A stretch of 64,000 bases of DNA, taken from positions 1 to 64,000 of IMG/VR virus record IMGVR_UViG_3300050015_000167; one strand, 5' to 3'. Positions 1-11,542 of this stretch are shown here, one piece after another. Position 1 is the first letter of the stretch, and each line of letters opens with the position of its first letter. This DNA comes from a virus. Under the pieces are notes generated by a model. That model saw only the letters and a list, made by a program, of their open reading frames with translations, ran no database searches and was not told where the DNA came from. A program made the position numbers and the translations under genes.

Positions 1-417
1 CTCCTTAAAAACATTGGAGTATCCGACCACTCCGAAGTCATTGATGCTCTCCAAGTACTCCGGTGTAATGGAGTGGAAGACACCCTCTGGTTGCTCCGGA
101 GTACCGCATGTTTTGAAGACACGGCTCAGGCATGGGCGGAGTACAATAAGGTGAAGGCTCCGGCATGGGCGGAGTACAATAAGGTGAAGGCTCCGGCATG
201 GGCGGAGTACAATAAGGTGACGGCTCAGGCATGGGCGGAGTACGATAAGGTGACGGCTCAGGCACGGGCGGAGTACGATAAGGTGAAGGCTCAGGCACTG
301 GCGGAGTACGATAAGGTGAAGGCTCAGGCACTGGCGGAGTACGATAAGGTGAAGGCTCAGGCATGGGCGGAGTACAATAAGGTGAAGGCTCCGGCATTAG
401 AAAATATACTTTCGTAA
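1..417 (+). CDS. 3' part of a gene entering from the left edge; C-terminus made of eight 11-aa repeats AEY[ND]KV[KT]A[PQ]A[WLR]
   Basis: Frame 1 is open from base 1 to TAA 415-417. The 33-bp repeat is in frame. The next promoter begins at 422. Confidence 0.6.
   Translation, partial: LLKNIGVSDHSEVIDALQVLRCNGVEDTLWLLRSTACFEDTAQAWAEYNKVKAPAWAEYNKVKAPAWAEYNKVTAQAWAEYDKVTAQARAEYDKVKAQALAEYDKVKAQALAEYDKVKAQAWAEYNKVKAPALENILS
121..399. repeat. 33-bp tandem repeat, about 8.5 near-identical copies
   Basis: Unit GCGGAGTACAATAAGGTGAAGGCTCCGGCATGG (few variable positions) starts at 136, 169, 202, 235, 268, 301, 334 and 367. Confidence 0.9.
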
Positions 418-421
418 GTAT

Positions 422-456
422 TTGACATCCATCGCAGAATGTGAGATACTTGAAAT
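422..456 (+). promoter_or_regulatory. sigma70-like promoter abutting the start codon
   Basis: TTGACA 422-427; 17 bp; TGaGATACT (-10 at 445-450); 6 nt; ATG 457. Confidence 0.65.
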
Positions 457-885
457 ATGAAGACACAAGACGAACTACTCCTTGACTTAGTACGAAGCCT
501 CCCTGAACTAGTCCTAACTGGCAGCCGGTACTTCGGTACGGCCCGCCGAGATTCGGACTGGGACTTCATGTTGCCCGCTGGTCTGGAATACATGCTGCCG
601 GAATCGTTTTTCCTGAAGTCCGAGAATCGTGGTCACTACAACGATCCGTGCGTGGAACAAGTGTGGGAATCGTATGCGTTGAATGTCCATGTGCAAGTCG
701 TCACCGACATGGAAACCAAGATTGCCGCTCAGAAGATCATCCGTGACGCCGGCGCCCTTGTTGGTTTGGGAAAGGAACAGCAGAAGGCAGTCTGGACGGC
801 AGTTGTCAACGCCCTCCTAATTCGTCGGTGGCGGCCGGCCGATCTCTCAGCGGATACGTCTATTAGTTTTGGAAGTTCTTCCTAA
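457..885 (+). CDS. pol-beta-fold (minimal) nucleotidyltransferase-like protein
   Basis: TGSRYFGTARRDSDWDF gives GS-x10-DxD, the G[SG]...[DE]x[DE] signature of MNT-type nucleotidyltransferases. 142 aa, preceded by a promoter. Confidence 0.55.
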   Translation: MKTQDELLLDLVRSLPELVLTGSRYFGTARRDSDWDFMLPAGLEYMLPESFFLKSENRGHYNDPCVEQVWESYALNVHVQVVTDMETKIAAQKIIRDAGALVGLGKEQQKAVWTAVVNALLIRRWRPADLSADTSISFGSSS

Positions 886-985
886 TGTGCCCGAGTAACA
901 CTTGGGGAGAAACTCACCTTCCAAATACCCCGGCGTTAGTAGCGGACCACCCGCGAAACCGCCGGGTTTCTTTAGGCCCAAACTT

Positions 986-1042
986 TCGTTATGATAACAG
1001 AAACCACTTGACAACCATGTTAGTAACTGTTACACTTTAAAT
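986..1042 (+). promoter_or_regulatory. early promoter cassette (palindrome + sigma70-like promoter, leaderless geometry)
   Basis: CGTTATGATAACAG 987-1000; TTGACA 1008-1013; 17 bp; TACACT 1031-1036; 6 nt; ATG 1043. Confidence 0.65.
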
Positions 1043-1225
1043 ATGAATGAAACCGTGAAACCGTATCGTGATATGCCGGCCACATGGAACGCACGCAAAA
1101 AGTTGGTTCTTCTTCCTCCTGATTTGACCGAGGAATTCTGGCACGGTGGAGGACACAATTGTTCTGGAGTAGAAGGACCCTCAATGCGTAAATGGGCAAT
1201 TGAAACGTTCAAGTATTGGTTTTAG
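1043..1225 (+). CDS. hypothetical small early protein (60 aa)
   Basis: ORF starts exactly 6 nt after the -10 box. Confidence 0.5.
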   Translation: MNETVKPYRDMPATWNARKKLVLLPPDLTEEFWHGGGHNCSGVEGPSMRKWAIETFKYWF

Positions 1226-1264
1226 ATTGTTTCCTTTTAGATTCTTCAGAGCGTGCATTCCTGC

Positions 1265-1294
1265 TTGACTTTCAATAAACTAAAATGTTATACT
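1265..1294 (+). promoter_or_regulatory. sigma70-like promoter (leadered)
   Basis: TTGACT 1265-1270; 18 bp; TATACT 1289-1294; AGAGGTG precedes ATG 1314. Confidence 0.45.
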
Positions 1295-1313
1295 TGTATT
1301 AGAGGTGAATTGT

Positions 1314-1475
1314 ATGGCGATGACGGTTTCTGTATCAGTGGCCCAAGGCATTCAATACATTATAGGACAATCACTTATGGTAGGTGGCCAATGGCTCAAA
1401 ATTTGTGGTAAATTTCCAATAATGGATGAAACTGGGAAAGTTACCCATTATAACATTTTAGTGGAAAAGAGGTAA
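1314..1475 (+). CDS. hypothetical small protein (53 aa, below ORF-track cutoff)
   Basis: ATG 1314 with AGAGGTG Shine-Dalgarno; TAA 1473-1475; hand translation. Confidence 0.3.
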   Translation: MAMTVSVSVAQGIQYIIGQSLMVGGQWLKICGKFPIMDETGKVTHYNILVEKR

Positions 1476-1776
1476 TCATAGTGGGGTGGTCTGGATACAA
1501 AGAATATGTAAAAGAGGATGTTACTCTTGCCATTTTCTATGACGCGGGTCTAAAACGTTGGTATGCTTTCCGACCCGGAACAAATGATGCGGCAATATAT
1601 TTCCGTAGATGGTAATATATTCTTTTCGATATAGGTCCTACATGGTTCAAAACTTATGAGGATGCCAAATTGGAAGTAACCGCAAGAGGTTTCAAAGTAT
1701 TCTTTCCTAATATGATAAAGGAAATTATACCAGGGGAAGAACCTTGGTAACGGATGTAATAAAAAAAGGAAAATAA

Positions 1777-1953
1777 ATGATAAACGTTATATTGGTTGTT
1801 GCTTGGATTCTTGTAGTAACAATGGCGCTGACTTTCTGGATATCTCCAAAAGGATGCCGTTATCTTTCTCTTCGGTTATTTGCTCGTGCGGAGCAACTTG
1901 AAATTGGACGCAAAACGTATCATGATACAATTGCCTCCAATATGTATTTGTAG
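1777..1953 (+). CDS. hypothetical small membrane protein (58 aa)
   Basis: AAAGGA before ATG 1777; hydrophobic N-terminus MINVILVVAWILVVTMALTFWI; TAG 1951-1953. Confidence 0.35.
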   Translation: MINVILVVAWILVVTMALTFWISPKGCRYLSLRLFARAEQLEIGRKTYHDTIASNMYL

Positions 1954-1976
1954 AATCAGTTTTGGAGGTAGACTAA

Positions 1977-2186
1977 ATGCCATTCTGGGATGATGATTAC
2001 CCCGATTATGACCGTACTCCAGATGAATCTGAATTCCGTGATCCCGGGGGAAATTCTGCTCTACGTGCCGGTAAACGGACTAAACCGTGCCCTACATGTG
2101 GCAGAAAGAATGCTTTGACCGTAAAGGACGTTCAATTGGGTTATCAATGTGATCCGTGCGCGAATCGCGCCGAAAGAGGATTTTAA
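1977..2186 (+). CDS. small zinc-ribbon protein
   Basis: CPTC...CDPC pair of CxxC motifs; GGAGG before ATG 1977. Confidence 0.55.
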   Translation: MPFWDDDYPDYDRTPDESEFRDPGGNSALRAGKRTKPCPTCGRKNALTVKDVQLGYQCDPCANRAERGF

Positions 2187-2323
2187 TGGACAAAGCGCAT
2201 CTAGTTATGGAGAAGTATTTCGATACGGACGTGACCGATTACGAGTCGGCCATGGACGTATTTCTGGACAACGACGTTGATCCGGAGATTGCTCGTTTCA
2301 TCGCCAGCACGATGTTCCCATAA
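2186..2323 (+). CDS. hypothetical small acidic protein (45 aa)
   Basis: ATG overlaps the upstream TAA (TAATG). Followed by hairpin GAGGGC-AAAA-GCCCTC. Confidence 0.35.
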   Translation: MDKAHLVMEKYFDTDVTDYESAMDVFLDNDVDPEIARFIASTMFP

Positions 2324-2350
2324 GGAAGAGGGCAAAAGCCCTCAAGCATG

Positions 2351-2430
2351 TGTTATGATAACAAGAAGCTTACGTTATGATAACAAGAAACCAGTTGACA
2401 TCCATACCCGGCGCGTGCTATAATCTTAAT
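2351..2430 (+). promoter_or_regulatory. early promoter cassette with two palindromes
   Basis: TGTTATGATAACA 2351-2363 and CGTTATGATAACA 2373-2385; TTGACA 2395-2400; 18 bp; TATAAT 2419-2424; 6 nt; ATG 2431. Confidence 0.7.
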
Positions 2431-2685
2431 ATGATTACAATGGCTTTGAATGAAAACGAAGTAGCGTTGTTCCGATTCGCGTTTCAGAAGTGGGCAAAGA
2501 TTCCCGACTCCGATCCATACAAGTACTCAATTGCCGTGTACCTGACCAAGAATGAAATCCGCCTTTTGAGGCACGGATTAGATTTATGGATGGATGAGGA
2601 TTCATCTATTTTTCCTTCTCCAGAAACAAATGCGGGAACAGCATTATTCCACGCTATGATGGAATTTGAGGAATGCGAAGAATAG
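2431..2685 (+). CDS. hypothetical early protein (84 aa)
   Basis: ORF track gives 2377..2685, but 2377-2430 is the palindrome/promoter. ATG 2431 lies 6 nt after TATAAT. Confidence 0.55.
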   Translation: MITMALNENEVALFRFAFQKWAKIPDSDPYKYSIAVYLTKNEIRLLRHGLDLWMDEDSSIFPSPETNAGTALFHAMMEFEECEE

Positions 2686-2810
2686 AAACCATTTTCCTCA
2701 CCGCTGTAATGTTGATGGTGGCGATATTATTTTCCTATATCGTCACCCAAGCATTGATAGATATATTTTGGATTTTGTGGTATTGTTATCCTTTTGGTTT
2801 CTAAAGCCTC

Positions 2811-2823
2811 TGTTATCATAACG
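2811..2823. promoter_or_regulatory. solitary copy of the palindrome
   Basis: TGTTATCATAACG, about 125 bp upstream of the next -35 box. Confidence 0.5.
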
Positions 2824-2946
2824 TTAGTTTCCCCTACTTTAGCGTTACAGTTTGCGTTGTATTTTGGCCCATGCTGTAGTATCAGACTGTATGGACAAAT
2901 CGAACCTAGAGCATTGTAGCGCGATAAAATAAATGTAATTCGACTA

Positions 2947-2980
2947 TTGACAAGCATATATAGGTTTGATATTATAGATC
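2947..2980 (+). promoter_or_regulatory. sigma70-like promoter, leaderless geometry
   Basis: TTGACA 2947-2952; 17 bp; TATTAT 2970-2975; 5 nt; ATG 2981. Confidence 0.65.
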
Positions 2981-3283
2981 ATGAGCGAATTAAGAAACAA
3001 CACTGTTTCCACCGATAAATTCGATTACGCAAATCGAGTTTATTCCGCTGAAATTTCCGATTTAGGACAATCGTTCCGATTCACCCAAATTTACACGGAT
3101 GCAGCGGATCGTGGTTTCACCCTTCAATCCCGAACAGGGAAAGTTGCCAATTTCTTTGTAGCGCACCGGCACGAAGATGGTGAAGGTGATACTACTCATT
3201 GGACTTTATTGCCGACGCCAGAGGCGATCCGACAAAATCCTAACCTTCATGATGTCCATATAGTGCTGTTCAACCATGATTAG
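2981..3283 (+). CDS. hypothetical early protein (100 aa)
   Basis: ORF begins 5 nt after the -10 box. Confidence 0.6.
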   Translation: MSELRNNTVSTDKFDYANRVYSAEISDLGQSFRFTQIYTDAADRGFTLQSRTGKVANFFVAHRHEDGEGDTTHWTLLPTPEAIRQNPNLHDVHIVLFNHD

Positions 3284-3293
3284 GAGTTATCCA

Positions 3294-3527
3294 ATGTACG
3301 ATGGCTACGATGATTACGAATTAGATTCCAGAGAGGCGTTCTATGAACAGGATGACCTCGAAACCTTCAACCAGAATGAAGCGGATGATTACCGCAATGA
3401 GGGATCAGATGACAGTGACCTGGATTACGATCTTGATGCGGATTTGGACTTCTTGGACGAATTAGAAGACTTCCTTTATCACCGAGATGAAGCCACACGG
3501 CTCGGTGATGATATTTCCTATCAGTAA
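3294..3527 (+). CDS. extremely acidic small protein (Asp/Glu/Tyr-rich)
   Basis: AGGAG 3281-3285 then ATG 3294 (ORF track start 3276). Sequence MYDGYDDYELD...DSDLDYDLDADLDFLDELEDF. Confidence 0.6.
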   Translation: MYDGYDDYELDSREAFYEQDDLETFNQNEADDYRNEGSDDSDLDYDLDADLDFLDELEDFLYHRDEATRLGDDISYQ

Positions 3528-3620
3528 CCAACAAATTGGTCGAGACTCACGCTAATCGGTAAAACCTGGTAGTAGAATGGTTAGACAATAAGCCAGGTAG
3601 CTTCAATCACAAGGAATTCT

Positions 3621-3645
3621 CCGGCGACAGATGTTCGCCGGGTTT
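3621..3645 (+). terminator. hairpin with short T tract
   Basis: CCGGCGA-7 nt-TCGCCGG followed by GTTTCC. Confidence 0.5.
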
Positions 3646-3662
3646 CCTTGGCCTCAAGGTCT

Positions 3663-3720
3663 CGTTATCATAACAAATTCTTGCTTGACAGGATACAGTT
3701 ATTTGTGTTATGATTTAATC
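3663..3720 (+). promoter_or_regulatory. early promoter cassette
   Basis: CGTTATCATAACA 3663-3675; TTGACA 3685-3690; TATGAT 3709-3714; 6 nt; ATG 3721. Confidence 0.65.
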
Positions 3721-4047
3721 ATGATGAAACGTGATCCGAAACACCAGAAGAGATTCGAGAAACTGGCTTCTCTTCTCCTTTTGACCGTAGAGGAAGCCGA
3801 TGAATTGTGCCGGGCCGCCTCTTCCACATGGGAATACATCGCATACGATTGCCTCGCTGCCGATCCTGGTCGTGACATGAAAGCGGATGAAGTGATCGAA
3901 GTAGTCCTGGATGCGAACCATATTACTTCGAATACTCGCAATCTTTCCCCCAAAGTCCGCACACTGTTGGATTCGTACACGATGTCACCGACCATCCAGA
4001 AACTCCTCAAGGAATTCGTGTTCGTGTATAAGTCTTACGGAATGTAA
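3721..4047 (+). CDS. hypothetical early protein (108 aa)
   Basis: ORF track 3631..4047 runs through the promoter. ATG 3721 is 6 nt after the -10 box. Confidence 0.6.
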   Translation: MMKRDPKHQKRFEKLASLLLLTVEEADELCRAASSTWEYIAYDCLAADPGRDMKADEVIEVVLDANHITSNTRNLSPKVRTLLDSYTMSPTIQKLLKEFVFVYKSYGM

Positions 4048-4059
4048 AAGGAAACCAAA

Positions 4060-4437
4060 ATGATGAAACGTCAAGAGTTTACCGTGTCCTTTAAAATCGT
4101 GTCGTTCCTTTCCGAAAAAGATGTAATAGAATCCGTTAAAGCCCTTTTGGCTCTTACATCTCCAAATATGTTTTATTTGACCAAGAAGGAAACCGAATCC
4201 ATTACCATTTACAAATTGGAAGAAACCAAAAATTCATTCGTTTCCGAATTCGTCCTGAAAGCCATCTTCGATGACTATTCCGAGTATTGGGATGAATGTA
4301 ATGGAAGTTGGTCTCTCTATCTCGATACTGCCACAAGATATGTCACCGAGGAAGACGCACGGAACGTCCTTTTGCCAGTTACGGCAGTAATGGACGTTTT
4401 CCAAAACAAAGGCGTTATCACAATCAGGGAAGTTTAG
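4060..4437 (+). CDS. hypothetical protein (125 aa)
   Basis: AAAGGAAA before ATG; noticeably more AT-rich than its neighbours. Confidence 0.6.
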   Translation: MMKRQEFTVSFKIVSFLSEKDVIESVKALLALTSPNMFYLTKKETESITIYKLEETKNSFVSEFVLKAIFDDYSEYWDECNGSWSLYLDTATRYVTEEDARNVLLPVTAVMDVFQNKGVITIREV

Positions 4438-4444
4438 TCTCCCC

Positions 4445-4618
4445 ATGTATAAACTCACAGTAGAATACCAACCACATTTTGATCATTACCGTATTACTGT
4501 CAAACATAAGGGAAAGTACCGGATTGAGACTATTTGGGAACATTTTGCTATCAAAGAATTTGTTGCCGTTACCATCACCAATGCCACCTCTTGGATGATT
4601 AAACACGGCGGGTTCTAA
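4445..4618 (+). CDS. hypothetical small protein (57 aa)
   Basis: Hand translation MYKLTVEYQPHFDHYRITVKHKGKYRIE...; TAA 4616-4618. Confidence 0.4.
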   Translation: MYKLTVEYQPHFDHYRITVKHKGKYRIETIWEHFAIKEFVAVTITNATSWMIKHGGF

Positions 4619-5182
4619 TAGCACAATCCAACCGATCTATTAACACACCTCCTATTCATTATGAAACCAAAAATATTGTTTATTATCACCATTTCCATAT
4701 TGTTGAGTTTCATTCTGATATATGGTGTGCTTTGGATCCTTTGTTTCATTCTTTCAGAAATTTTATGAGATTCCCTTTACTCCTTTCATGTGCTATTTTA
4801 ATCGGTAAATTGGTCGGAGAAGGTATATTCCTGCTTCTCTTGAAAATATTCTGAAGGAATCCATTTTCCATAGCCATATTATTGTGGCGAGATATACTTA
4901 AGTGGCTGCTAAAGTAACAAAAAGAGGAAATAAAGGGAAAAGAATATATCGTGCCGAGAGGTAAGGAGTATCCACATGGTTGCTCCAATAATAGGGATGA
5001 AATGAGGATGAGGACCATTAGTGACCTCTTAAGTCCTTTGAGTCCATTGGAGTCCCTTTGGTTCCGTTGTCAGTCGACCCAGCACCCCAAAACTCCAGCG
5101 GTCCCAGTGGTCCCAGAGGACCTCTGTGGTTCCCAGTCCCTCTGTGTCCATTGTCCCTCTCCGGTTTTCTCCTCACAAGCTT

Positions 5183-5302
5183 CTGTTATCATAACGGACC
5201 CTTCCAGTCCACCAAGGTCCCGTTATCATAACGCCCTCTTGCCAATAATTCCCAAAAAACTTTGATATTCCGCTTGACAGTAGCCCCGGGGACTGCTATA
5301 TT
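5183..5302 (+). promoter_or_regulatory. two palindromes plus sigma70-like promoter (leadered)
   Basis: CTGTTATCATAACGG 5183-5197; CGTTATCATAACG 5221-5233; TTGACA 5274-5279; 17 bp; TATATT 5297-5302; 49-nt leader with AAGGAG before ATG 5352. Confidence 0.6.
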
Positions 5303-5351
5303 AGAAGAGTAGACAGAAACACACACTCGCAGAAAACGAAGGAGATACATT

Positions 5352-5777: not shown

Positions 5778-5797
5778 CCACCCAGTATATCACCAAA

Positions 5798-5826: not shown

Positions 5827-5843
5827 CCTTTTGGGGCAAGAAC

Positions 5844-5913
5844 CTGTTATCATAACAGGACCTTGACGATAAAACCACTTGACAATGTATTCAGAATGTG
5901 AGATACTGTGAAT
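5844..5913 (+). promoter_or_regulatory. early promoter cassette
   Basis: CTGTTATCATAACAG 5844-5858; TTGACA 5879-5884; 17 bp; TGaGATACT (-10 at 5902-5907); 6 nt; ATG 5914. Confidence 0.7.
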
Positions 5914-6150: not shown

Positions 6151-6153
6151 GGA

Positions 6154-6232
6154 GAGGGCTTCGGCCCTCAAGGTCCTGTTATCATAACAGAATTATCTTG
6201 ACATCCATTGGTGTGCGTGCTACTATATGAAT
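6154..6232 (+). promoter_or_regulatory. hairpin + palindrome + promoter cassette
   Basis: GAGGGC-TTCG-GCCCTC 6154-6169; CTGTTATCATAACAG 6176-6190; TTGACA 6198-6203; 17 bp; TACTAT 6221-6226; ATG 6233. Confidence 0.7.
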
Positions 6233-6562
6233 ATGAAATTGATTATCAACGTAGCAAACGAGCGGTACGCCAACGTAGAGGTATCCGGTTTCAAGTTCGA
6301 GGTTGAACTCGAAAACGTACCGGAAGACCGCCAGTGGAAGATTGAGGAGCTCCGTGGGGAGCGCGACCGCCTACAGGTCGACTTCAATAACGTGGCTGAC
6401 CAGTTGAGCCAGGCACTCGCAACGATCCGCACCCAACGTACGGAAGCGGCGCCTGTCCGCAACAAAATCAACGCCATCAAGAAGGTCCGCGAACTGACCA
6501 ACATGGGCCTCAAGGAAGCCGTGGACCTCACCGATGCCATGGTTGTGGCGTTAAACCAGTAA
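6233..6562 (+). CDS. early protein with ribosomal L7/L12 C-terminal-domain-like segment
   Basis: INAIKKVRELTNMGLKEAVDLTDA resembles the IK.VR..TGLGLKEAKDLV segment of L7/L12. ORF track start 6227 abuts the -10 box. Confidence 0.55.
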   Translation: MKLIINVANERYANVEVSGFKFEVELENVPEDRQWKIEELRGERDRLQVDFNNVADQLSQALATIRTQRTEAAPVRNKINAIKKVRELTNMGLKEAVDLTDAMVVALNQ

Positions 6563-6589
6563 CCAACAAGACCGGAACCAGTCCGGTTA

Positions 6590-6616
6590 CCGGAGGGGAC
6601 AGCAACCCTCCGGTTT
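6590..6616 (+). terminator. rho-independent terminator
   Basis: CCGGAGGG-8 nt-CCCTCCGG followed by TTT; a second small hairpin at 6571-6587. Confidence 0.65.
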
Positions 6617-6632
6617 CCAAGGCCTCAAGGTC

Positions 6633-6689
6633 CTGTTATCATAACAGAAACCACTTGACACCAGGCCATTGGTGTGTTAGTATTAGATT
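6633..6689 (+). promoter_or_regulatory. early promoter cassette
   Basis: CTGTTATCATAACAG 6633-6647; TTGACA 6655-6660; 17 bp; TAGTAT 6678-6683; 6 nt; ATG 6690. Confidence 0.7.
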
Positions 6690-7274
6690 ATGAAACGCAT
6701 TACACTGTTGGCTTTGATGATTGCCTCTGCCTGCTACGGCCAGAGGGTTCAAACAATGGCAGGGAATCTGCCACGTGACCTCCTGGGACCTGTTGATATG
6801 CGGGACACCCGAACGGTTTGCAACGGACCGTGCATTTGGGGAAATGCGGACAGCGTTTTAATGCCGATCACCTTTTCCCCACCGGCCGGCTTCCGTGTGA
6901 AGATCTTGAGCCTCCGCGGCGATATGGTATCGTGGATCAAAAGCCTTCCGGGTGACAAAGCCACTCCGTTGGAGAGCATGGCCGGGACTTTGATGGGCTT
7001 CGAGGAAAACGATACCCAGACGGACCTGGCATGCACCTACTGTGCAATGCGTACCCCACTGTATATCCAAGACAGTGTGGGAGAAAAGTCTCCCAATCAC
7101 CGCGCCGACTTCAATTACGATGGTGTGGACCTGGTGCTGCCGGCCGATAACACCCTCAACCTCAAGATTGCGGCCTGGCTCAATACGACCGGAAAGCCAA
7201 TTCACATTGAAGCCACATACGTAATCAAGTTCCAATTCGTTCGAATCCGTGACAACGAAGAGGAGGCCAAGTAA
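6690..7274 (+). CDS. exported protein (194 aa) with Sec-type signal peptide
   Basis: N-terminus MKRITLLALMIASACYGQ; several Cys in the mature part. Confidence 0.65.
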   Translation: MKRITLLALMIASACYGQRVQTMAGNLPRDLLGPVDMRDTRTVCNGPCIWGNADSVLMPITFSPPAGFRVKILSLRGDMVSWIKSLPGDKATPLESMAGTLMGFEENDTQTDLACTYCAMRTPLYIQDSVGEKSPNHRADFNYDGVDLVLPADNTLNLKIAAWLNTTGKPIHIEATYVIKFQFVRIRDNEEEAK

Positions 7275-7390
7275 TGTTGTATCTCATCATCGCCGGTATA
7301 TGGATTATATTGTGTTGCCTTTCGGCGCTCTGGTTTTATTGTGCCAAGGCACAGGAACGGAGGCTCCGCAATATGCGGAAGGGGAGATAA
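7274..7390 (+). CDS. small single-pass membrane peptide (38 aa)
   Basis: TAATG overlap with the upstream gene; MLYLIIAGIWIILCCLSALWFYC then basic tail. Confidence 0.35.
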   Translation: MLYLIIAGIWIILCCLSALWFYCAKAQERRLRNMRKGR

Positions 7391-7403
7391 ACTCCCCAAG
7401 ACC

Positions 7404-7460
7404 CTGTTATCATAACAGAATTATCTTGACATCCCCAGTGGACTATGTTATCATTGTTAT
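7404..7460 (+). promoter_or_regulatory. early promoter cassette
   Basis: CTGTTATCATAACAG 7404-7418; TTGACA 7426-7431; 17 bp; TATCAT 7449-7454; 6 nt; ATG 7461. Confidence 0.7.
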
Positions 7461-7739
7461 ATGACAAGTTTAGAAATGCAGAAGGCCATCGGCCAGCCCG
7501 TGATATACGAGAGCCACGGCCTCCGTTTTGTATGCGTGGTGAGGGATGTAAAGGTCTCTTATGGACAACCACGCTTCCTGATTACGCCAATGATGGGAAC
7601 AGGAGAGACCTTTGTAGAGATTGGCACGATTTCACCGATGCCAGCGGATAAGAACCAATTGCGATATACACCGGAACGCCACGTGAGCCCGGGGTACGCT
7701 GCCCTCCCTAGTGGTCAGAACGGAATGATTGTCCGTTAG
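7461..7739 (+). CDS. hypothetical early protein (92 aa)
   Basis: Starts 6 nt after the -10 box. Confidence 0.6.
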   Translation: MTSLEMQKAIGQPVIYESHGLRFVCVVRDVKVSYGQPRFLITPMMGTGETFVEIGTISPMPADKNQLRYTPERHVSPGYAALPSGQNGMIVR

Positions 7740-7750
7740 TGAAATAGTTG

Positions 7751-7785
7751 TTGACATCCGCCAACGATTGTGAGATACTAATTAC
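7751..7785 (+). promoter_or_regulatory. sigma70-like promoter, leaderless geometry, no palindrome
   Basis: TTGACA 7751-7756; 17 bp; TGaGATACT (-10 at 7774-7779); 6 nt; ATG 7786. Confidence 0.65.
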
Positions 7786-7965
7786 ATGAGCAAATCGAGT
7801 AACACACCGGGCGCCGCACGAGCGCATTATGAGACGCGCAAAGCGAATCGCCCCGTCCAGATCTGGAAAAAGGCTTTGAAGTCGAAGCCCGGTGTCCCCT
7901 CCACGCGCATTGCCGCGGCCAAGGGTGAAGTGGGAGCCATCCCAGTCAAGTCGTTTTCGAAGTAA
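7786..7965 (+). CDS. hypothetical basic protein (59 aa, below ORF-track cutoff)
   Basis: Hand translation MSKSSNTPGAARAHYETRKANRPVQIWKK...; TAA 7963-7965. Confidence 0.45.
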   Translation: MSKSSNTPGAARAHYETRKANRPVQIWKKALKSKPGVPSTRIAAAKGEVGAIPVKSFSK

Positions 7966-7977
7966 AGGAGCCACACC

Positions 7978-8112
7978 ATGAAGGATTTCGCCGTCGTCAC
8001 GGATTGCCGGACGTATTTCGCTACGTCCGTTGCCGCTAACGTTTACGGATGGGCCACAGGCGGCACCGTCGAAGTCTGGACAAAGAACGGCTGGAAGCCG
8101 TTGAAGGGATAA
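7978..8112 (+). CDS. hypothetical small protein (44 aa)
   Basis: AAGGAG before ATG 7978; TAA 8110-8112. Confidence 0.4.
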   Translation: MKDFAVVTDCRTYFATSVAANVYGWATGGTVEVWTKNGWKPLKG

Positions 8113-8156
8113 GTTTCATACCCGGAGAAGTAGCGCTAAAATTCTCCGATCGCTAG

Positions 8157-8208
8157 CCGGAAGGTGAGCTATAGAGGTCTGCGACCTCCATTGGCCCTTC
8201 CGGTTTTT
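8157..8208 (+). terminator. compound hairpin terminator
   Basis: CCGGAAGG...CCTTCCGG enclosing GAGGTC-TGC-GACCTC, followed by TTTTT. Confidence 0.65.
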
Positions 8209-8224
8209 CTTTGTGACCAAGGTT

Positions 8225-8238
8225 CTATTATCATAACG
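8225..8238. promoter_or_regulatory. degenerate copy of the palindrome
   Basis: CTATTATCATAACG; no well-spaced promoter follows. Confidence 0.4.
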
Positions 8239-8402
8239 AAAGCTTGATATAGACCGCTCTAATAGCGTGGCCACTGTATACTAAATGATGCGATTTCTAC
8301 CCCTACAATGACGCTGGCTGCATTTGTCCATACCCCCTGATACTACAGCATGGGCCGGCCAGCCGACGCAGCCAAGGGCTCGGTATCGATAACGAATAGT
8401 GC

Positions 8403-8436
8403 TTGACTATTAGAACTACCTGTGTTAGTATAGATC
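8403..8436 (+). promoter_or_regulatory. sigma70-like promoter, leaderless geometry
   Basis: TTGACT 8403-8408; 17 bp; TAGTAT 8426-8431; 5 nt; ATG 8437. Confidence 0.65.
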
Positions 8437-8625
8437 ATGGCATTCAATGAAGTAGCTTTCAGAGCGGATCCCGATTCGTTTGATATCAGGGTTTGCGCGG
8501 AAGAGACCGTACTCGGTATGCCTGGTATGGCATTCTTACAATGGAGAGACGCATTCTTGGACACCAAGCCCGGCGTATTCATGCTCCACAAAGCCGAGTG
8601 TCTAATAGATCCATGCGGAAAATAG
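8437..8625 (+). CDS. hypothetical early protein (62 aa)
   Basis: Starts 5 nt after the -10 box. Confidence 0.5.
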   Translation: MAFNEVAFRADPDSFDIRVCAEETVLGMPGMAFLQWRDAFLDTKPGVFMLHKAECLIDPCGK

Positions 8626-8732
8626 TACACATGATGATCCTGTGGACATGGATGATGCCGTGTCCACAGACCCAAGTGGCAACGTTGATTGTCATAGGGA
8701 TATGGATATGGAATCGGAAAGCTTCCAAGGAC

Positions 8733-8783
8733 CCGTTATGATAACGGTGTCTATTAGAACGGAAGCTCCTGTTATGATAACGG
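8733..8783. promoter_or_regulatory. pair of palindromes 36 bp apart without an obvious promoter
   Basis: CCGTTATGATAACGG 8733-8747 (perfect 15-mer) and CTGTTATGATAACGG 8769-8783. Confidence 0.55.
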
Positions 8784-8800
8784 TACCTTGGGGCCTGGAA

Positions 8801-8835
8801 ATGCCCTCCGGGGAGAACCGGAGGGCATGGTTTTT
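8801..8835 (+). terminator. strong rho-independent terminator at the switch to leftward genes
   Basis: ATGCCCTCCGG-6 nt-CCGGAGGGCAT followed by GGTTTTT. Confidence 0.7.
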
Positions 8836-8978
8836 ACCGGGGCATTGCCCGCAGTCTGATGTGAGGTGGTGATGTCCAGGTCAGGGTCTCGGCGGCCCGC
8901 TGGCGTTTGCAATCTGCGATGAACCGTTTCCAGGTACGGAGTATGGACTTCATTTTACCCTCCCAGGAGAAACCCCGC

Positions 8979-9347
8979 TTATGCGGGGTTGAGCATTTTC
9001 GCTTTCGCTTTGGCTTCGATCATTTCGAGTAGCTGCCCGCGATACTTGGCAATCGTGGGGACGGGGACGGTGCCGCGTTTCCAGGGGCGGCGGCAATTGC
9101 GCAGGTCGTCGGCGGTCAGATGGCCCCCGGCGAGTATCACGCGAGCATAGTTCCCGAATTCGCGGGCGTCGGCGACCTGGAAGCCTACGGTGTTTTTGAC
9201 GTAGGTCTCGCCCGTCTGTTTTTCTACTTCGGTCTGGCGTTTATACAGTGCGACGATGGCCATCTCGACCCATGCGTCATTAGTCGAAAGCATATCGAGG
9301 ATCTTTGCTTTCGTCCAGTCGGTTACTTTGTTGTAATTAACGTACAT
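8979..9347 (-). CDS. hypothetical protein (122 aa)
   Basis: ORF track 8979..9398. Minus-strand TTGCAA-16 bp-TACTAT lies at 9384-9357, 9 nt before ATG 9347. The spacer contains a CGTTATCAT half-site. Confidence 0.55.
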   Translation of the reverse strand: MYVNYNKVTDWTKAKILDMLSTNDAWVEMAIVALYKRQTEVEKQTGETYVKNTVGFQVADAREFGNYARVILAGGHLTADDLRNCRRPWKRGTVPVPTIAKYRGQLLEMIEAKAKAKMLNPA

Positions 9348-9586
9348 AACATAATCATAGTAGCATGATAACGGGTGCTTGCAACATGTTTTTATCATAA
9401 TCGAACATTAAAATCTGTTAATGTTCCAACAGGGCCACCTGTGGTGCGCCCACTGTGGCGTGAGATATAAGCGCCCAGGGGCGGATTACAGCGTAGTCCA
9501 ACTATAGCGGAATTCCAAGCTTTTGTCAAGTATCCGAACATTAAAGTTTTTTAATAATTCAACGTCGAAAAAACTTCAGAATTCGC

Positions 9587-9620
9587 TTGACCCAGGGGGT
9601 GCGCTCTGCTACTATGAATC
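9587..9620 (+). promoter_or_regulatory. sigma70-like promoter, leaderless geometry
   Basis: TTGACC 9587-9592; 17 bp; TACTAT 9610-9615; 5 nt; ATG 9621. Confidence 0.6.
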
Positions 9621-9764
9621 ATGATTGAAACGACGATACAGAGCGCAAAAAACCTAATCGACTCGAATCCGGGCGCGGCCGCCGCTGCCATCGCCTTGGG
9701 AGTCTTTATCGCCGCCGCTTATCTCATCGTTTCGTTCTATAAAATTTACACAGGAGCTCACTAA
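9621..9764 (+). CDS. small membrane peptide (47 aa)
   Basis: Hand translation MIETTIQSAKNLIDSNPGAAAAAIALGVFIAAAYLIVSFYKIYTGAH; TAA 9762-9764. Confidence 0.4.
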   Translation: MIETTIQSAKNLIDSNPGAAAAAIALGVFIAAAYLIVSFYKIYTGAH

Positions 9765-9765
9765 A

Positions 9766-10221
9766 ATGTCATTCAAACGCCTCGAAGGTCTCACCGCGAA
9801 GGGTACGCCGATCACCCTGTTCCGCGCAATTGTTGTTAACGCCGAGCAATTCAAGCTGGCCCAAGATATGATCGCCGCCAACAACGGCGAGCCCCTGATG
9901 ACCCGCAAAGTCATCCTGTCCATGAATGAAGCCCTACGCCCCGGGAAAGCATACATGCCGTACTTCATTTCCAAGAACGTCGCCTGCAAGACCAAGACGT
10001 TCGGTGTTTACGACCTGTCTAAACTGAAGCTTTCGGCCGCCGCGAAGGCCGCTGCCGTCGAAACCCCCGCGCCCGAATCGACACCGATCTCCGCGCCGAA
10101 GACCAAGCGCGTCCGCGCAAAGCGCGAATCCAAGCCGAAGCTTGGGCAGCCCGAAACCCCCGTCGCCGAGTCGGTCGAGCACCCGCCCCTGGGCATCGAA
10201 GCCCCCGCCGTCACCGAGTAA
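9766..10221 (+). CDS. paralog of 5352..5777 (globular N-domain + basic/Pro-rich tail)
   Basis: AGGAG before ATG. Shares a 47-bp identical stretch (9937-9983) with 5523-5569. Confidence 0.7.
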   Translation: MSFKRLEGLTAKGTPITLFRAIVVNAEQFKLAQDMIAANNGEPLMTRKVILSMNEALRPGKAYMPYFISKNVACKTKTFGVYDLSKLKLSAAAKAAAVETPAPESTPISAPKTKRVRAKRESKPKLGQPETPVAESVEHPPLGIEAPAVTE

Positions 10222-10322
10222 GTTCTGATAGAATCTCCTCTCCCGAATCGCTCCCCGCTCCCCGGGGGGCTTTTTCAGGCCTACGCGTTATGTAAGTAAC
10301 CACTTACTTACTTCGCAAGGTC

Positions 10323-10336
10323 CCGTTATCATAACC
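10323..10336. promoter_or_regulatory. palindrome copy between convergent terminators
   Basis: CCGTTATCATAACC preceded by CAAGGTC. Confidence 0.5.
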
Positions 10337-10350
10337 GAAGCTTGGGCCTG

Positions 10351-10377
10351 AAAAAGCCCCCGACCGAAGCCGGGGGC
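10351..10377 (-). terminator. rho-independent terminator of the leftward gene
   Basis: Minus strand reads GCCCCCG-8 nt-CGGGGGC followed by TTTTT. Confidence 0.65.
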
Positions 10378-10393
10378 GAAGGACTGGGCGATT

Positions 10394-10717
10394 TTAGCAG
10401 AGTTTCGAAATTTGGGTCGACGCGGTGATAGCGCCCGTCTGAAAGCGGCCGAAGTGGCGAATAACGAAGGGCTGAACCTCGCGGAGGTCAACGTCGGGGT
10501 TGCTCTGCGGATACGTCATATTCGCGGAGATCCCGTTGTTTTTGAGAAGACGAAAGCGGGAGCGGCGAAGCTTGTAAGCGGCGAAGGTCGTCGGCGTCTC
10601 GCCCGCTAACAGTTTGGCGATAAGCTTCAACGAGCCGGCAATGTGGCCTTGCTTGCGGGCGAGGAGGTTGCTGTTTTTGCGCTGTTCCCGGCGCAGGGTT
10701 TTCTCGGTTTTGGTCAT
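10394..10717 (-). CDS. hypothetical basic protein (107 aa)
   Basis: GC-rich ORF followed by a terminator; Arg/Lys-rich N-terminus. Confidence 0.55.
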   Translation of the reverse strand: MTKTEKTLRREQRKNSNLLARKQGHIAGSLKLIAKLLAGETPTTFAAYKLRRSRFRLLKNNGISANMTYPQSNPDVDLREVQPFVIRHFGRFQTGAITASTQISKLC

Positions 10718-10725
10718 TTGTCTCC

Positions 10726-10890
10726 TTAGAAGTCTTCAGATGCAATGAAGGCGCGCCATGCGGGGAGCTCCCAGCCGTCGGGCGCATTGTAGTACAGATT
10801 CGAATGGGTCGAGCATTCCACGCGCAATTCAGCGATTAGCGCGGGGTCGTTTGTTTTCTTGACGTTGATGTAGTCGGCTAGCGTGCTCAT
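10726..10890 (-). CDS. hypothetical small protein (54 aa)
   Basis: ORF track 10726..10956. A minus-strand TTGACG promoter-like element lies inside 10891-10956, so ATG 10890 (MSTLADYINV) is preferred. Confidence 0.45.
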   Translation of the reverse strand: MSTLADYINVKKTNDPALIAELRVECSTHSNLYYNAPDGWELPAWRAFIASEDF

Positions 10891-11097
10891 ATTCAATCTC
10901 ACTGTACTGTATACACTATGGGCTAGTTCCGAGCGCACGTCAAGAGAAATCTGCATTATTCTTTATTAAGATTTGTTAATGAATACACTTTGTACACCTG
11001 TACAATCGTAGAATGCTCTGTGCTGCGTCGGGGCTCAAGTGAGTACAACTACTCAAGTTAGCATCGCCGAGCGCATCACAAGCTTAACACGCTGAAT

Positions 11098-11364
11098 ATG
11101 CATAGCTACACACGATGTACGAATGCTCTGGTTACCCCTGGTTTGACGCTGGCTGGGTTTCTGGGTCAATCTGATGGTTTAGCATGGGCCCAGGGTTATA
11201 AATCGATTCTAGAGCATTCTAGCGAATGGATTAAAGAAAAGGATGAGATTGAAGCGGCAATGTGTATGAAAGCAAAGGGGATAGGGGTTTGGGAGTATAT
11301 GCAAGTGAATTGCAGGTACTCGGAAGTTATTGAGGCCATTGGGGTTAGCTGGGAGTGCGTTTAG
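11098..11364 (+). CDS. hypothetical protein (88 aa) in the compositional transition zone
   Basis: ORF only; intermediate GC; no clear promoter or SD. Confidence 0.3.
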   Translation: MHSYTRCTNALVTPGLTLAGFLGQSDGLAWAQGYKSILEHSSEWIKEKDEIEAAMCMKAKGIGVWEYMQVNCRYSEVIEAIGVSWECV

Positions 11365-11542
11365 GGAATCATAAAAGTGGGAAATCGAGAGTAGATACTA
11401 TCGATTAAAGTTTGTGTTCGTATGTGTGTATCAAAGAATTCCCATTCCAAAAAATTTTTCTGGAGGACATAGAGGACTCAGTGGACCTTTGTGTCCATTC
11501 GTGATTCGAGAATATCATAATACTCAATGATAAATAGAGAAT

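Follow-up and report, generated by a model that had tools for sequence, protein, structure and literature searches.

The window analysed here, the whole stretch of 64,000 nucleotides (positions 1 to 64,000 of the IMG/VR record IMGVR_UViG_3300050015_000167), comes from the genome of an uncultured soil or peat T4-like myovirus. Its left part is a GC-rich field of small, probably early, genes (~49% GC on average over positions 1-10,960), whereas the T4-like backbone has 34-36% GC. The field extends past the left end of the window and measures at least 12 kb in relatives. The features of this region are as follows:

1-10956: GC-rich small-gene field, probably early, defined by composition and syntenic in relatives L009, L012, L024-30 and L043/44
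73-417, plus strand: ORF of 8.3 copies of a 33-nt repeat (123-397; AWAEYNKVKAP-like peptide)
5001-10956: right sub-field, 53% GC, defined by composition
5352-5777, plus strand: paralogue A of the conserved core family, GC3 0.72
6233-6562, plus strand: small protein, part of which resembles the C-terminal domain of ribosomal L7/L12 (PF00542, E = 1.6e-7)
6655-7274, plus strand: promoter and gene (6690-7274) of a 194-aa signal-peptide protein, recognized by an indel relative to L009 and by homologues
8979-9398, minus strand: most widely conserved field gene, GC3 0.67 (phrog_21015, E = 3e-14)
9766-10221, plus strand: paralogue B of the core family, GC3 0.78, sharing a repeat with paralogue A
10394-10956, minus strand: two field-closing genes, 10394-10717 (GC3 0.76) and 10726-10956 (GC3 0.64)
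10957-11400: transition zone comprising a divergent intergenic region and, after it, an ORF (11098-11364)
11543-11902, plus strand: Endonuclease VII-type HNH gene, 33% GC (PHROG E = 1.4e-32; Pfam PF02945)

For 24 of the 25 field proteins, no homologue was found among 50,697 GenBank phages. The gene at 8979-9398, the true start of which is probably at 9347 (122 aa), has homologues in L009, L012, L024/25 and L027/28 and a single weak GenBank match, in Rhodobacter phage RcZahn. In paralogue A, an N-terminal domain of ~90 aa is followed by a basic linker rich in K, A and P and, C-terminally, by the conserved motif PLxIEAPA; the gene is leadered, with GAAGGAG as Shine-Dalgarno (SD) sequence. Paralogue B has 17 homologues, all known from metagenomes only, and no fold match was found for it. 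A 51-bp tract that is 98% identical between the two (9937-9987 in B, 5523-5573 in A) suggests gene conversion. The L7/L12-like gene is conserved in L009, its TIGR00855 match being below the cut-off. The closing minus-strand pair is convergent with paralogue B, with paired terminators between them (10250-10377), and the HNH gene, absent from L009, is inserted just right of the field.

GC content is 0.529 at 1-1000, 0.373 at 1230-1975, 0.359 at 2700-2980, 0.379 at 4060-5000, 0.529 at 5001-10960, 0.445 at 10961-11400, 0.364 at 11401-40200 and 0.336 at 43601-64000. An earlier, sequence-only reading had counted three 60-nt lines by hand, exactly as it turned out (0.57 at 5641, 0.38 at 22021 and 0.22 at 17041), and both the AT-richer patches that it described within the field and the gradual right edge at 10960-11400, with a GC value between those of the flanking segments, are real. 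The ORF in this transition zone has 46% GC and a GC3 of 0.47, and no homologue of it was found in the relatives. The bimodality expected of the GC profile is present: in 500-nt windows the standard deviation is 0.084, compared to 0.022 for homogeneous composition, and a two-component mixture (means 0.349 and 0.51) is better than a single component (BIC −306 versus −262). The backbone is AT-rich, as had been stated, but not uniformly so, since it contains a second, sharper GC-rich island at 40.2-43.6 kb. The reported switch in codon style was also recovered, with a pooled GC3 of 0.59 in the field (range 0.33-0.78) versus 0.23 in the backbone (0.14-0.37, 50 genes; Mann-Whitney p = 6e-12 for the contrast). 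GC2 is nearly equal (0.40 and 0.38, respectively), and synonymous sites mainly carry the contrast. All genes of 5352-10956 have GC3 of at least 0.52, and the left sub-field (1.2-5.0 kb) is only intermediate (GC3 0.33-0.65, 36-45% GC). Intergenic DNA of the field is also GC-enriched (0.49 versus 0.33 in the backbone), and amino-acid usage is shifted too (GARP 0.287 versus 0.215).

A jump in composition may raise the suspicion that a GC-rich contig was joined to an AT-rich phage contig during assembly, and this jump is the sole ground for it, no other support having been found. The junction at 10.9-11.5 kb is crossed at 99.98-100% identity by 5 independent contigs (2 from JGI, 2 from Logan and 1 from ENA), originating from five samples and three assembly pipelines. 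The diverged relative L009 (72-81% identical) carries the same GC-rich field beside the same AT-rich neck/gp15/gp16 module, and one promoter type occurs on both sides of the junction. The chimera, which the earlier reading had wanted excluded first, can thus be dismissed with near certainty. At the other end, three Logan contigs end shortly past the 33-nt-repeat ORF.

The field is further distinguished by the regulatory elements between its genes:

422-9615, plus strand: 14 near-consensus sigma-70 promoters with extended −10 (TTGACN-N13-15-TGN-[TG]ANNNT), from a motif search
422-450, 1008-1036, 1265-1294, 2395-2424 and 2947-2975, plus strand: promoters 1 to 5
3685-3714, 5274-5302, 5879-5907, 6198-6226 and 6655-6683, plus strand: promoters 6 to 10
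7426-7454, 7751-7779, 8403-8431 and 9587-9615, plus strand: promoters 11 to 14
457, 1043, 2431, 2981, 3721, 5914, 6233, 6690, 7461, 7786, 8437 and 9621, plus strand: starts of predicted leaderless genes, from the 6-7-nt spacing
988-10335: 14 exact palindromes GTTAT(C/G)ATAAC, a candidate operator recurring in relatives
988, 2352, 2374, 2812, 3664, 5185 and 5222: palindrome copies 1 to 7
5846, 6178, 6635, 7406, 8735, 8771 and 10325: palindrome copies 8 to 14
12092-13144, minus strand: backbone gene with a leaderless promoter (motif), GC3 0.37
38427-39344: backbone gene with a leaderless promoter (motif), GC3 0.21
61607-63919: backbone gene with a leaderless promoter (motif), GC3 0.23

A stricter version of the promoter motif yields 11 matches, with 0.23 expected. 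At 12 of the 14 field promoters the start codon lies 6-7 nt past the −10 hexamer, and this short spacing is found in 15 of 19 cases against a background of 0.025 (P = 3e-21). Such a spacing predicts leaderless mRNAs for the first genes of the cassettes; SD sequences are missing from promoter-proximal genes and present in downstream ones. The order within a cassette is terminator hairpin, palindrome, extended −10 sigma-70 promoter and start codon at the predicted transcription start, in some cassettes followed by further, SD-using genes. Most palindrome copies lie ~8-10 nt upstream of the −35 hexamer, and the palindrome recurs in the fields of relatives, but no exact copy was found in the rest of the 64-kb window. 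The claim that both compartments use the same promoter architecture therefore holds for the promoter, which also drives the three AT-rich backbone genes listed above, and not for the palindrome, an additional element confined to the field. No T4-type late-promoter motif was found in the field; the window contains four, three of them upstream of structural genes. Judged by these motifs, the field is a distinct regulatory compartment that is conserved in relatives, and its genes are probably expressed early.

The palindrome's restriction to the field, the right-edge genes on the minus strand, whose divergent and convergent arrangement resembles a small regulatory module, and the presence of an integrase-borne GC-rich island elsewhere in this genome would all suit a separate co-resident element, that is, a long-integrated GC-rich mobile element or satellite with its own regulator and operator. 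Such an element is nevertheless quite improbable. The promoter type and the leaderless layout are common to backbone genes, profile and domain searches detected no recombinase, replication or packaging genes in the field, the field lies in the same place beside the neck module in L009 and L012 and has co-diverged with the backbone, and a single DNA molecule should share one mutation regime.

Comparison with L009 allowed us to assess how long the contrast has lasted. Of the four-fold sites, 45% of those in field genes and 53% of those in backbone genes differ between the window and L009, with GC4 values (window/L009) of 0.75/0.78 and 0.23/0.22, respectively. Field and backbone have diverged to a similar extent, each keeping its own composition. 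In a two-state model with one divergence time assumed for both compartments, S/W divergence in the backbone gives (u+v)2t = 1.83, under which even an all-GC ancestor (GC4 of 1.0) would by now have decayed to 0.54 (95% interval 0.38-0.63), whereas the field GC4 observed is 0.76 (0.72-0.80). The field GC4 is thus no un-ameliorated remnant, and passive amelioration fails to explain it. Paralogues A and B are saturated at four-fold sites (56% differ), and both retain GC4 of 0.78-0.81; in each of the six relatives examined, the core family has GC3 of 0.72-0.79, even in members with as little as 42% amino-acid identity. The most GC-rich field genes are the most conserved ones: median GC3 is 0.68 for genes with homologues in relatives versus 0.50 for the others (p = 0.019), and the widely conserved core genes (GC3 0.67-0.78) coincide with the GC peak in L012, a distant relative. 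The field adjoins the neck module in both relatives whose contigs reach that module (L009 and L012), and the remaining relatives carry the same kind of field. Comparison with relatives thus indicates a contrast that is inherited and actively sustained, and not the fading trace of a recent import.

The second GC-rich island shows what imported DNA looks like in this genome:

40200-43600: second GC-rich island, 55-69% GC, with sharp borders (composition), used as import comparator
40033-40830: composite ORF
40832-42058: LRR protein with ~14 near-identical 69-nt repeats
42537-43562, minus strand: Xer-like tyrosine recombinase

Its left border is spanned by 3 assemblies. The island and its integrase had been overlooked in the sequence-only reading. 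Integrase-borne genomic islands ameliorate after horizontal transfer. The island is like them in that it is sharply bordered, encodes a tyrosine recombinase of its own and reaches a GC3 of 0.83. The left field is unlike them: it has no recombinase, is graded and patchy in composition, is syntenic in relatives and shows no amelioration.

Plain horizontal import, the first of two options in the earlier reading, would have brought the field genes from a GC-rich host or its phages too recently for amelioration. Some import does occur: the cassette with gene 6690-7274 is absent from L009, a real indel, and homologues of this gene reside in bacterial chromosomal contexts and in three Terriglobia (Acidobacteriota) MAGs (43-53% identity), so that at least 1 cassette appears to have come from, or to be common to, the Terriglobia gene pool. 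The second island likewise demonstrates that integrase-bearing GC-rich DNA enters the genome, the gene-by-gene spread of GC3 (0.33-0.78) is as expected of a mosaic of ages, and the only GenBank phage match belongs to a phage of a GC-rich host. As a general explanation, import is unlikely. Orthologues of field and backbone share similar divergence and retained synteny, the relaxation test rules out passive retention, the GC-richest genes are the most conserved, and saturated paralogues and 42%-identity homologues keep GC3 above 0.7. Taxonomy of the small genes yielded a single bacterial-linked family, that of 6690-7274; the other 2 of the 3 field families searched are metagenome-only, without cellular members.

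The second option, early genes tuned to host codon usage, is the better fit, with both host and timing being predictions from sequence features. Codon usage of the right field correlates with that of Terriglobia DNA at r = 0.86-0.87 (backbone, r = −0.64), and at 0.76-0.79 for G/C-ending codons only (backbone, −0.06). The Terriglobia match is only slightly higher than that to unrelated Proteobacteria of ~60% GC (Sinorhizobium and Pseudomonas; 0.76). The option does not account for everything. The left sub-field (1.2-5 kb), of intermediate composition, reaches an RSCU r of only 0.15 against Terriglobia despite having the same cassettes, and the three AT-rich backbone genes behind the same promoter type indicate that expression by host RNA polymerase does not require high GC. 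Furthermore, the shifts in intergenic DNA and amino-acid usage fit a force acting at the DNA level at least as well as codon selection.

One such force is GC-biased gene conversion, in which the promoter and palindrome repeats would create a recombination hot zone where biased heteroduplex repair raises G/C. The rise in GC extends beyond third positions to spacers and non-synonymous positions, the tract shared by the saturated paralogues points to recent conversion, the cassette module repeats are many and dispersed, and AT-rich genes with the same promoter elsewhere oppose a purely expression-linked cause. Even so, we consider this process improbable as the cause, because the left sub-field has the same repeats and lower GC, and because choice among G/C-ending codons tracks bacterial usage, which a pure GC bias does not predict. 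In addition, its reported effects in prokaryotes amount to a few percent of GC3, compared to ~50 points here, and to our knowledge it has not been demonstrated for T4-type recombination.

In organization, the field most closely resembles the PeSL (promoter-early stem-loop) cassettes that T4-type phages carry in their hyperplastic regions (Arbiol et al. 2010, PMC2839356; Comeau et al. 2014, PMC4122927). In both, a stem-loop and then a near-perfect sigma-70 early promoter are repeated between small ORFans, concentrated in a variable region and tied to gene indels between close relatives. PeSLs end in a Shine-Dalgarno sequence and start codon, whereas the field cassettes place the start codon 6-7 nt past the −10 hexamer, with no SD, and carry the additional conserved palindrome upstream of the −35 hexamer. 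The PeSL papers give GC as whole-genome values only and report no compositional compartment (PMC2839356, PMC4122927).

As in the field, predicted expression time can track synonymous codon choice and GC. A difference in codon usage between early and late genes of T4 was reportedly noted by Cowe and Sharp in 1991. Early and late phage genes differ in codon usage and GC more generally (Mioduser et al. 2017, PMC5683454). On our reading of that literature, the contrast here is far larger (GC3 about 0.7 versus 0.23); unlike in those cases, spacers and amino-acid usage are shifted, the composition is evolutionarily stationary, and high GC is not common to all genes behind an early-type promoter.

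Judged by the portal protein, the closest relatives in culture are cyanomyoviruses, at 49-50% identity. Low-GC T4-like cyanomyoviruses compensate with phage tRNAs in high-GC hosts (Limor-Waisberg et al. 2011, PMC3152331), and a hyperplastic region with host genes was reportedly described by Millard et al. 2009, a study referenced there. The present virus is similar in its AT-rich backbone, in signs of a GC-rich host pool and in having a bacterial-type gene in the variable region. It differs in that no tRNA genes were found in the 64-kb window, that most of the GC-rich block is made up of lineage-specific ORFans and not of genes recognisable as host metabolic ones, and that Terriglobia rather than cyanobacteria form the candidate host pool.

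The analysis establishes the contrast, the absence of a chimera, synteny and co-divergence, the failure of passive amelioration, the cassette anatomy and one cassette indel with homologues in bacteria. The best explanation, which we put forward with about even confidence, is that positions 1-10,960 form the right part of a hyperplastic early-gene compartment that is conserved in the lineage and whose host-like composition is maintained by a continuing force, probably selection, with turnover of cassettes. Field DNA would be held at the composition of a bacterium of ~55-60% GC (GC3 up to 0.78), and the structural and replication backbone would sit at an AT-rich equilibrium (GC3 0.23). The maintaining force would most likely be selection for host-like composition and codon use: during the first minutes of infection, field genes would depend on unmodified host machinery for their transcription and translation, and we propose that this reliance imposes the selection, which would act most strongly on the conserved core genes, while recombination at the repeated promoter modules would gain and lose cassettes.

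Base composition divides the window into a GC-rich field of small genes (positions 1 to 10,960) and an AT-rich backbone of T4-like structural and replication genes. The GC values that the sequence-only reading had counted by hand in single 60-nt lines at 5641, 22021 and 17041 are exact (0.57, 0.38 and 0.22), and the AT-richer patches that it described inside the left part of the field, as well as the graded shift to backbone composition over 10961-11400, are equally real.

GC content by segment of the window
1-1000: 53%
1230-1975: 37%
2700-2980: 36%
4060-5000: 38%
5001-10960: 53%
10961-11400: 44.5%
remainder of the window: 34-36%

The bimodality on which that reading depended was borne out, a two-component GC mixture being favoured over one component, and GC variation between 500-nt segments amounted to 4 times the binomial expectation. 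Two corrections apply: the field extends past the left end of the window, and a second, sharper GC-rich island with up to 69% GC, which had gone unmentioned, lies at 40.2-43.6 kb (hereafter island 2). With gene calls selected by position-specific GC, GC3 was 0.59 pooled in the field (at least 0.52 in every gene of 5352-10956, with a maximum of 0.78) and 0.23 pooled in the backbone (range 0.14-0.37, 50 genes; Mann-Whitney p = 6e-12), and GC2 was nearly equal (0.40 vs 0.38). The contrast sits mainly at synonymous sites. The non-coding DNA of 5-11.4 kb is likewise GC-enriched (0.49 vs 0.33) and amino-acid usage is shifted in the field (GARP 0.287 vs 0.215; R/(R+K) 0.43 vs 0.33); thus, the block resembles a miniature genome of ~57% GC, beyond codon choice alone.

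The source of the window is, judging by its hallmark structural and packaging genes, a T4-like myovirus. The assignment to the T4 superfamily was based on the conserved-order set of neck gp13/14, gp15, gp16, gp17 terminase, gp18 sheath, gp20 portal, gp22 scaffold and gp23 capsid.

Hallmark genes in the window
16179-16967: neck protein (PHROG match)
32159-33754: gp20 portal (Pfam Portal_T4, 2.8e-169)
36984-38303: gp23 capsid (Pfam Gp23, 1.2e-141)
in the window: gp17 terminase (Pfam Terminase_6N/6C)
in the window: gp18 sheath (Pfam Phage_sheath)
in the window: gp22-type scaffold

T4_CASP is also among the Pfam matches of the window, and L009, a collinear diverged relative recovered from a metagenome, likewise has T4_neck, gp15 and DNA_Packaging matches. 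The closest cultured phages by portal are T4-like cyanomyoviruses, at merely 49-50% identity. Megablast of window positions 1-12,000 against GenBank phages gave no DNA-level match, the neck protein as query against IMG/VR recovered no relatives, and no tRNA genes or Rfam families were found within the 64-kb window. An endonuclease VII-type HNH gene lies at 11543-11902 and 3 GIY-YIG homing-endonuclease genes at 13883-14407, 16977-17498 and 38427-39344; the HNH gene and the first 2 GIY-YIG genes are absent from L009 and are therefore mobile insertions in the window. One of these endonuclease genes splits the neck and gp15 genes. Three tandem paralogous genes (21768-25140; 369, 375 and 372 aa, the first 2 being 63% identical), preceded by a collagen-repeat protein (19949-21763), are each made of a ~30-aa internal repeat (GVVSTYSLVYTT..GGVLAPNGDIHFVP) and probably represent tail-fibre or receptor-binding variants.

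The sequence-only reading had asked that an assembly chimera be excluded first, and it is: 5 contigs from 5 samples and 3 pipelines (JGI 3300050020 and 3300050019; Logan SRR35915826 and SRR35911453; ENA ERZ27254163), located via exact-protein look-up of the gene immediately right of the boundary, cross 10.9-11.5 kb at 99.98-100% identity. Stronger evidence is provided by the layout of L009 (JGI 3300069644), which at 72-81% nucleotide identity to the window has a collinear small-gene field of 45-61% GC leading into a neck/gp15/gp16 module of 30-35% GC. The same kind of field is present in L012 (a 175.7-kb contig with a 60% identical neck protein), L024-L030 and L043/L044, the last from a soil metagenome, and GC drops to 32-40% where these contigs exit the field. 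Most genes of the left sub-field (1200-5000) are without counterparts in the relatives. Near the left end, a 33-nt repeat encoding AWAEYNKVKAP-like peptides makes up ORF 73-417 with 8.3 copies, and 3 short-read contigs stop directly beyond this ORF, suggestive of a break point in assembly.

For the origin of the contrast, 2 options had been offered, namely, import of the early genes from a GC-rich gene pool or tuning of these genes to host codon usage. Four-fold sites were compared between the window and L009 in orthologues aligned by codon.

Four-fold sites, window versus L009
field: 45% differ; GC4 0.75 in the window, 0.78 in L009
backbone: 53% differ; GC4 0.23 in the window, 0.22 in L009

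The similar divergence indicates that both compartments diverged together. The symmetry of S-to-W and W-to-S changes between the 2 genomes was rejected as evidence of stationarity, because parallel decay would produce it too. We therefore used a relaxation test, in which a two-state model was calibrated on the S/W divergence of the backbone, (u+v)2t = 1.83. Under this model, an ancestral GC4 of 1.0 would have relaxed to 0.54 today (bootstrap 95% interval 0.38-0.63), whereas 0.76 (0.72-0.80) is observed in the field. The in-genome paralogues 5352-5777 and 9766-10221, which define the core family, share 59% amino-acid identity; with 56% of their four-fold sites differing, they have reached saturation there, and GC4 is 0.78-0.81 in both; among core-family members with identity down to 42%, GC3 is 0.72-0.79 at all 6 loci examined. 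Median GC3 is 0.68 among field genes that have homologues in relatives and 0.50 among those that do not (p = 0.019), and a widely conserved trio, 8979-9398 (minus strand), the 5352/9766 family and 10394-10717 (minus strand), has GC3 of 0.67-0.78 and falls where GC peaks in the distant relative L012. Conserved genes are the more GC-rich, the reverse of "GC-rich means recent." A recent island is expected to show amelioration and patchy distribution; the GC4 of the field is 0.76 as opposed to at most 0.54, and its core genes are syntenic in relatives. Collectively, these comparisons show that the composition of the field is actively maintained by a continuing force. Plain import, the first option, holds for individual cassettes (a promoter module with its small gene or genes), such as 6690-7274, but fails for the compartment as a whole, given the relaxation test, the co-divergence and the GC content of the conserved genes. 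A weaker rival is that the field has long resided in the genome as a separate element.

Island 2, at whose border GC rises from 30% to 64% within ~200 nt, serves as an internal comparator.

Genes of island 2
40033-40830: composite ORF, beginning in AT-rich DNA and running on into GC-rich DNA
40832-42058: LRR protein with ~14 near-identical 69-nt repeats (93-98% identity)
42537-43562, minus strand: Xer-like tyrosine recombinase, GC-rich (Pfam 7e-33)

Three independent assemblies cross the left border of the island, one of which (L042) has four fewer LRR repeats, reflecting either copy-number variation or assembly collapse. The island-2 integrase retrieved no relatives as query in the genome scan and no record in an exact look-up. 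A second tyrosine recombinase, AT-rich and of 226 aa (43823-44503), adjoins the island, and a pair of 19-nt inverted repeats (39337-39355 and 43708-43726) flanks the region. The region 40033-44503 may represent an integrated element, or else a receptor-binding module that can be inverted or shuffled. Island 2 has the look of a discrete import in this genome, and the left field is unlike it.

The genes of the field are small (~45-194 aa), and most are encoded on the plus strand. Near-consensus sigma-70 promoters with an extended −10, of the form TTGACA-N14-16-TGnTAnnnT, number 11 in the window (0.23 expected), with 8 of the 11 within 1-7.5 kb; slight relaxation of the motif yields 19 promoters, including 14 in the field (spanning 422-9615) and others at 13151-13179 (minus strand), 38392-38420 and 61572-61600. 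In 15 of the 19, the ATG or GTG of a real ORF lies 6-7 nt past the −10 hexamer (chance background 0.025, P = 3e-21). For the field promoters alone, this spacing is found in 12 of 14, with no Shine-Dalgarno (SD) sequence in those 12; SD sequences are absent from promoter-proximal genes and present at the downstream genes of the same units. From the −10-to-ATG spacing, the promoter-proximal genes are predicted to be leaderless, the start codon being the expected transcription start. With start codons tied to this spacing, ORF starts are placed at internal methionines at 2431, 3721, 5914 and 6233, and the start of a minus-strand ORF is probably also moved, to 9347. The leaderless-promoter pattern is kept in the relatives. 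Alignment of the promoter regions defined a cassette module consisting of a GC-rich hairpin, CAAGGTCC, the palindrome TGTTAT(C/G)ATAACA, a spacer of ~8 nt and the −35 hexamer. The palindrome GTTATNATAAC is present in 14 exact copies, all within 988-10335, and no exact copy of GTTATNATAAC (GTTATCATAAC) was found in the remaining 53 kb of the window. It recurs in the fields of the relatives (8 copies in L009, 5 in L024-26, 9 in L043/44) and is also present in L012. It sits immediately 5′ of the −35 hexamers and is a candidate operator for a dimeric regulator, with the products of the minus-strand field genes at 10394-10956 or a host factor as candidate binding proteins; it resembles the Escherichia coli LexA box, but with a spacing of N7 rather than N8. 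Segments upstream of promoters fold significantly better than shuffles in 5 of 12 cases (z −2.5 to −5.8) and not in the other 7, and terminator-like hairpins lie at 3620, 5795, 8801 and 10250. T4-type late-promoter motifs (TATAAATA) number 4 in the window, 3 of them shortly before structural genes (gp20 and gp23 among these), and none was found within the field. Because sigma-70-type motifs are present and T4-type late motifs absent, the field is labelled early; we infer its early expression from motifs only.

Scans of the field proteins against Pfam, PHROGs and NCBIfam returned nothing besides 2 matches. The protein 6233-6562 has a short C-terminal segment like the C-terminal domain of ribosomal protein L7/L12 (Pfam E = 1.6e-7), conserved in L009, and might contact the translation machinery; 8979-9398 (minus strand) matches one PHROG of unknown function. 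In a single tblastn search of 25 field proteins against 50,697 GenBank phage records, one weak match was obtained, to a Rhodobacter phage, and none for the other 24. Three families were searched for further members. The 9766-10221 family has 17, all metagenomic and in similar phage fields in every context examined; the family of 8979-9398 (minus strand) also has 17, metagenome-only and in phage-type fields in the contexts examined. For the core family, AlphaFold gave a model whose N-terminal domain is confident, and no significant neighbour of it was found in PDB or BFVD. The 6690-7274 family, with 27 members, is the one that includes bacterial members, 2 of which lie in clearly bacterial chromosomal surroundings (GAPDH, aminoacyl-tRNA synthetase, HU, FtsX, DUF1501/1800). 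Among 185,579 species genomes, it was found only in 3 Acidobacteriota MAGs of the class Terriglobia (Solibacteraceae, Candidatus Sulfopaludibacter and an unclassified Terriglobia bacterium), at 43-50% identity. Loci of this family (L033-L037) encode a conserved secreted protein with invariant motifs including NTTGKPIH and GD..(A/S)WIK, for which no Pfam or NCBIfam description was found. L009 has neither the 6690-7274 gene nor its promoter, so the whole cassette was gained or lost.

The Terriglobia loci have 58.5-61.4% GC and GC3 of 0.73. Relative synonymous codon usage (RSCU) of the right sub-field (5001-10956) correlates with theirs at r = 0.87 (0.86 without the 6690 gene), compared with r = −0.64 for the backbone; between right sub-field and backbone, r = −0.50. 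Restricted to G/C-ending codons, the correlation is 0.76-0.79 for the field and −0.06 for the backbone. A Terriglobia-specific match was rejected, as Sinorhizobium and Pseudomonas DNA of similar GC gives 0.76 (0.64-0.65 for S-ending codons); the codon match is mostly generic to GC-rich bacteria. Host tuning, the second option, is the better fit of the two, with codon usage like that of GC-rich bacteria but not phylum-specific. Three points weigh against it: 3 AT-rich backbone genes (12092-13144 on the minus strand, the GIY-YIG gene at 38427 and the gene at 61607) carry the same early-type leaderless promoter, although without the palindrome; the left sub-field has the same cassettes, yet merely intermediate GC; and non-coding DNA and amino-acid usage are shifted along with codons. 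A live rival is biased gene conversion, which would maintain GC in a recombination-prone cassette array. In its favour, a 51-bp tract of the core-family paralogues (5523-5573 vs 9937-9987) is 98% identical while synonymous sites elsewhere are saturated, suggesting recent gene conversion within the genome. We regard selection for a host-like composition of immediate-early genes as the most likely maintaining force, with confidence evenly balanced.

A further reading, which we consider rather unlikely, would be a host-mimicking launch pad, in which a virulent phage that is itself AT-rich and infects a ~60% GC host maintains its immediate-early genes at a host-like composition. GC-rich early genes would then evade defences against AT-rich or poorly translated DNA, such as xenogeneic silencers and Rho-dependent termination, and leaderless mRNAs would be translated by unmodified host machinery. 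A dimeric regulator, from phage or host, would turn the whole compartment off or on with the palindrome as its operator, and genes would become GC-rich by residing in the compartment (reverse amelioration) rather than being GC-rich on arrival. The shared 6690-7274 family, the similar, if unspecific, codon usage and the soil-metagenome relatives offer only a lead towards a Terriglobia (Acidobacteriota) host. Five Acidobacteriota phage isolates have 51-58% GC throughout (PMC11924767), and an AT-rich T4-like phage of this phylum would therefore be unusual.

The nearest known anatomy is that of the promoter-early stem-loop (PeSL) cassettes of T4-type hyperplastic regions (PMC2839356, PMC4122927), which share with the field a near-consensus sigma-70 early promoter (TTGACA-N17-TATAAT type), small ORFans and a location beside indels between close relatives, here the 6690-7274 cassette absent from L009; the stem-loop of PeSLs has a counterpart upstream of some of the promoters. 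However, PeSLs have an SD sequence and start codon at the 3′ end, whereas 12 of the 14 field cassettes are without that SD, and the palindrome is added to the PeSL-like layout. Thus, the field works like a PeSL region but is not classed as one. Differences in codon usage and GC between early and late genes occur in about half of phages studied (PMC5683454), although neither the magnitude seen in the field nor demonstrated stationarity was reported there. T4-like cyanomyoviruses are reported to keep low GC and to compensate with tRNAs (PMC3152331), and differential RNA-seq of phage phiKZ detected no leaderless phage transcripts (PMC8244752). We found no report, in the literature searched, of T4-type phages with systematically leaderless early genes or with an early architecture that joins leaderless first genes to a dedicated palindromic operator, nor of any early compartment whose high GC serves against silencing.

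In phage and bacterial genomes alike, an island of deviating composition is usually taken as recent horizontal transfer, a default that fails here when tested with relatives, and host-prediction and HGT-detection tools based on k-mer or GC signatures would split this phage genome in two. The window may represent a T4-like lineage infecting Acidobacteriota, a phylum whose phage isolates were described as first reported in 2025 (PMC11924767). With a GC3 gap of ~50 points inside one phage chromosome, stable over saturating synonymous divergence, it provides a natural system for the study of the forces holding DNA composition, among which translation with the tRNAs of the host ahead of phage takeover, escape from Rho termination or from silencing aimed at AT-rich DNA, and biased gene conversion are candidates.
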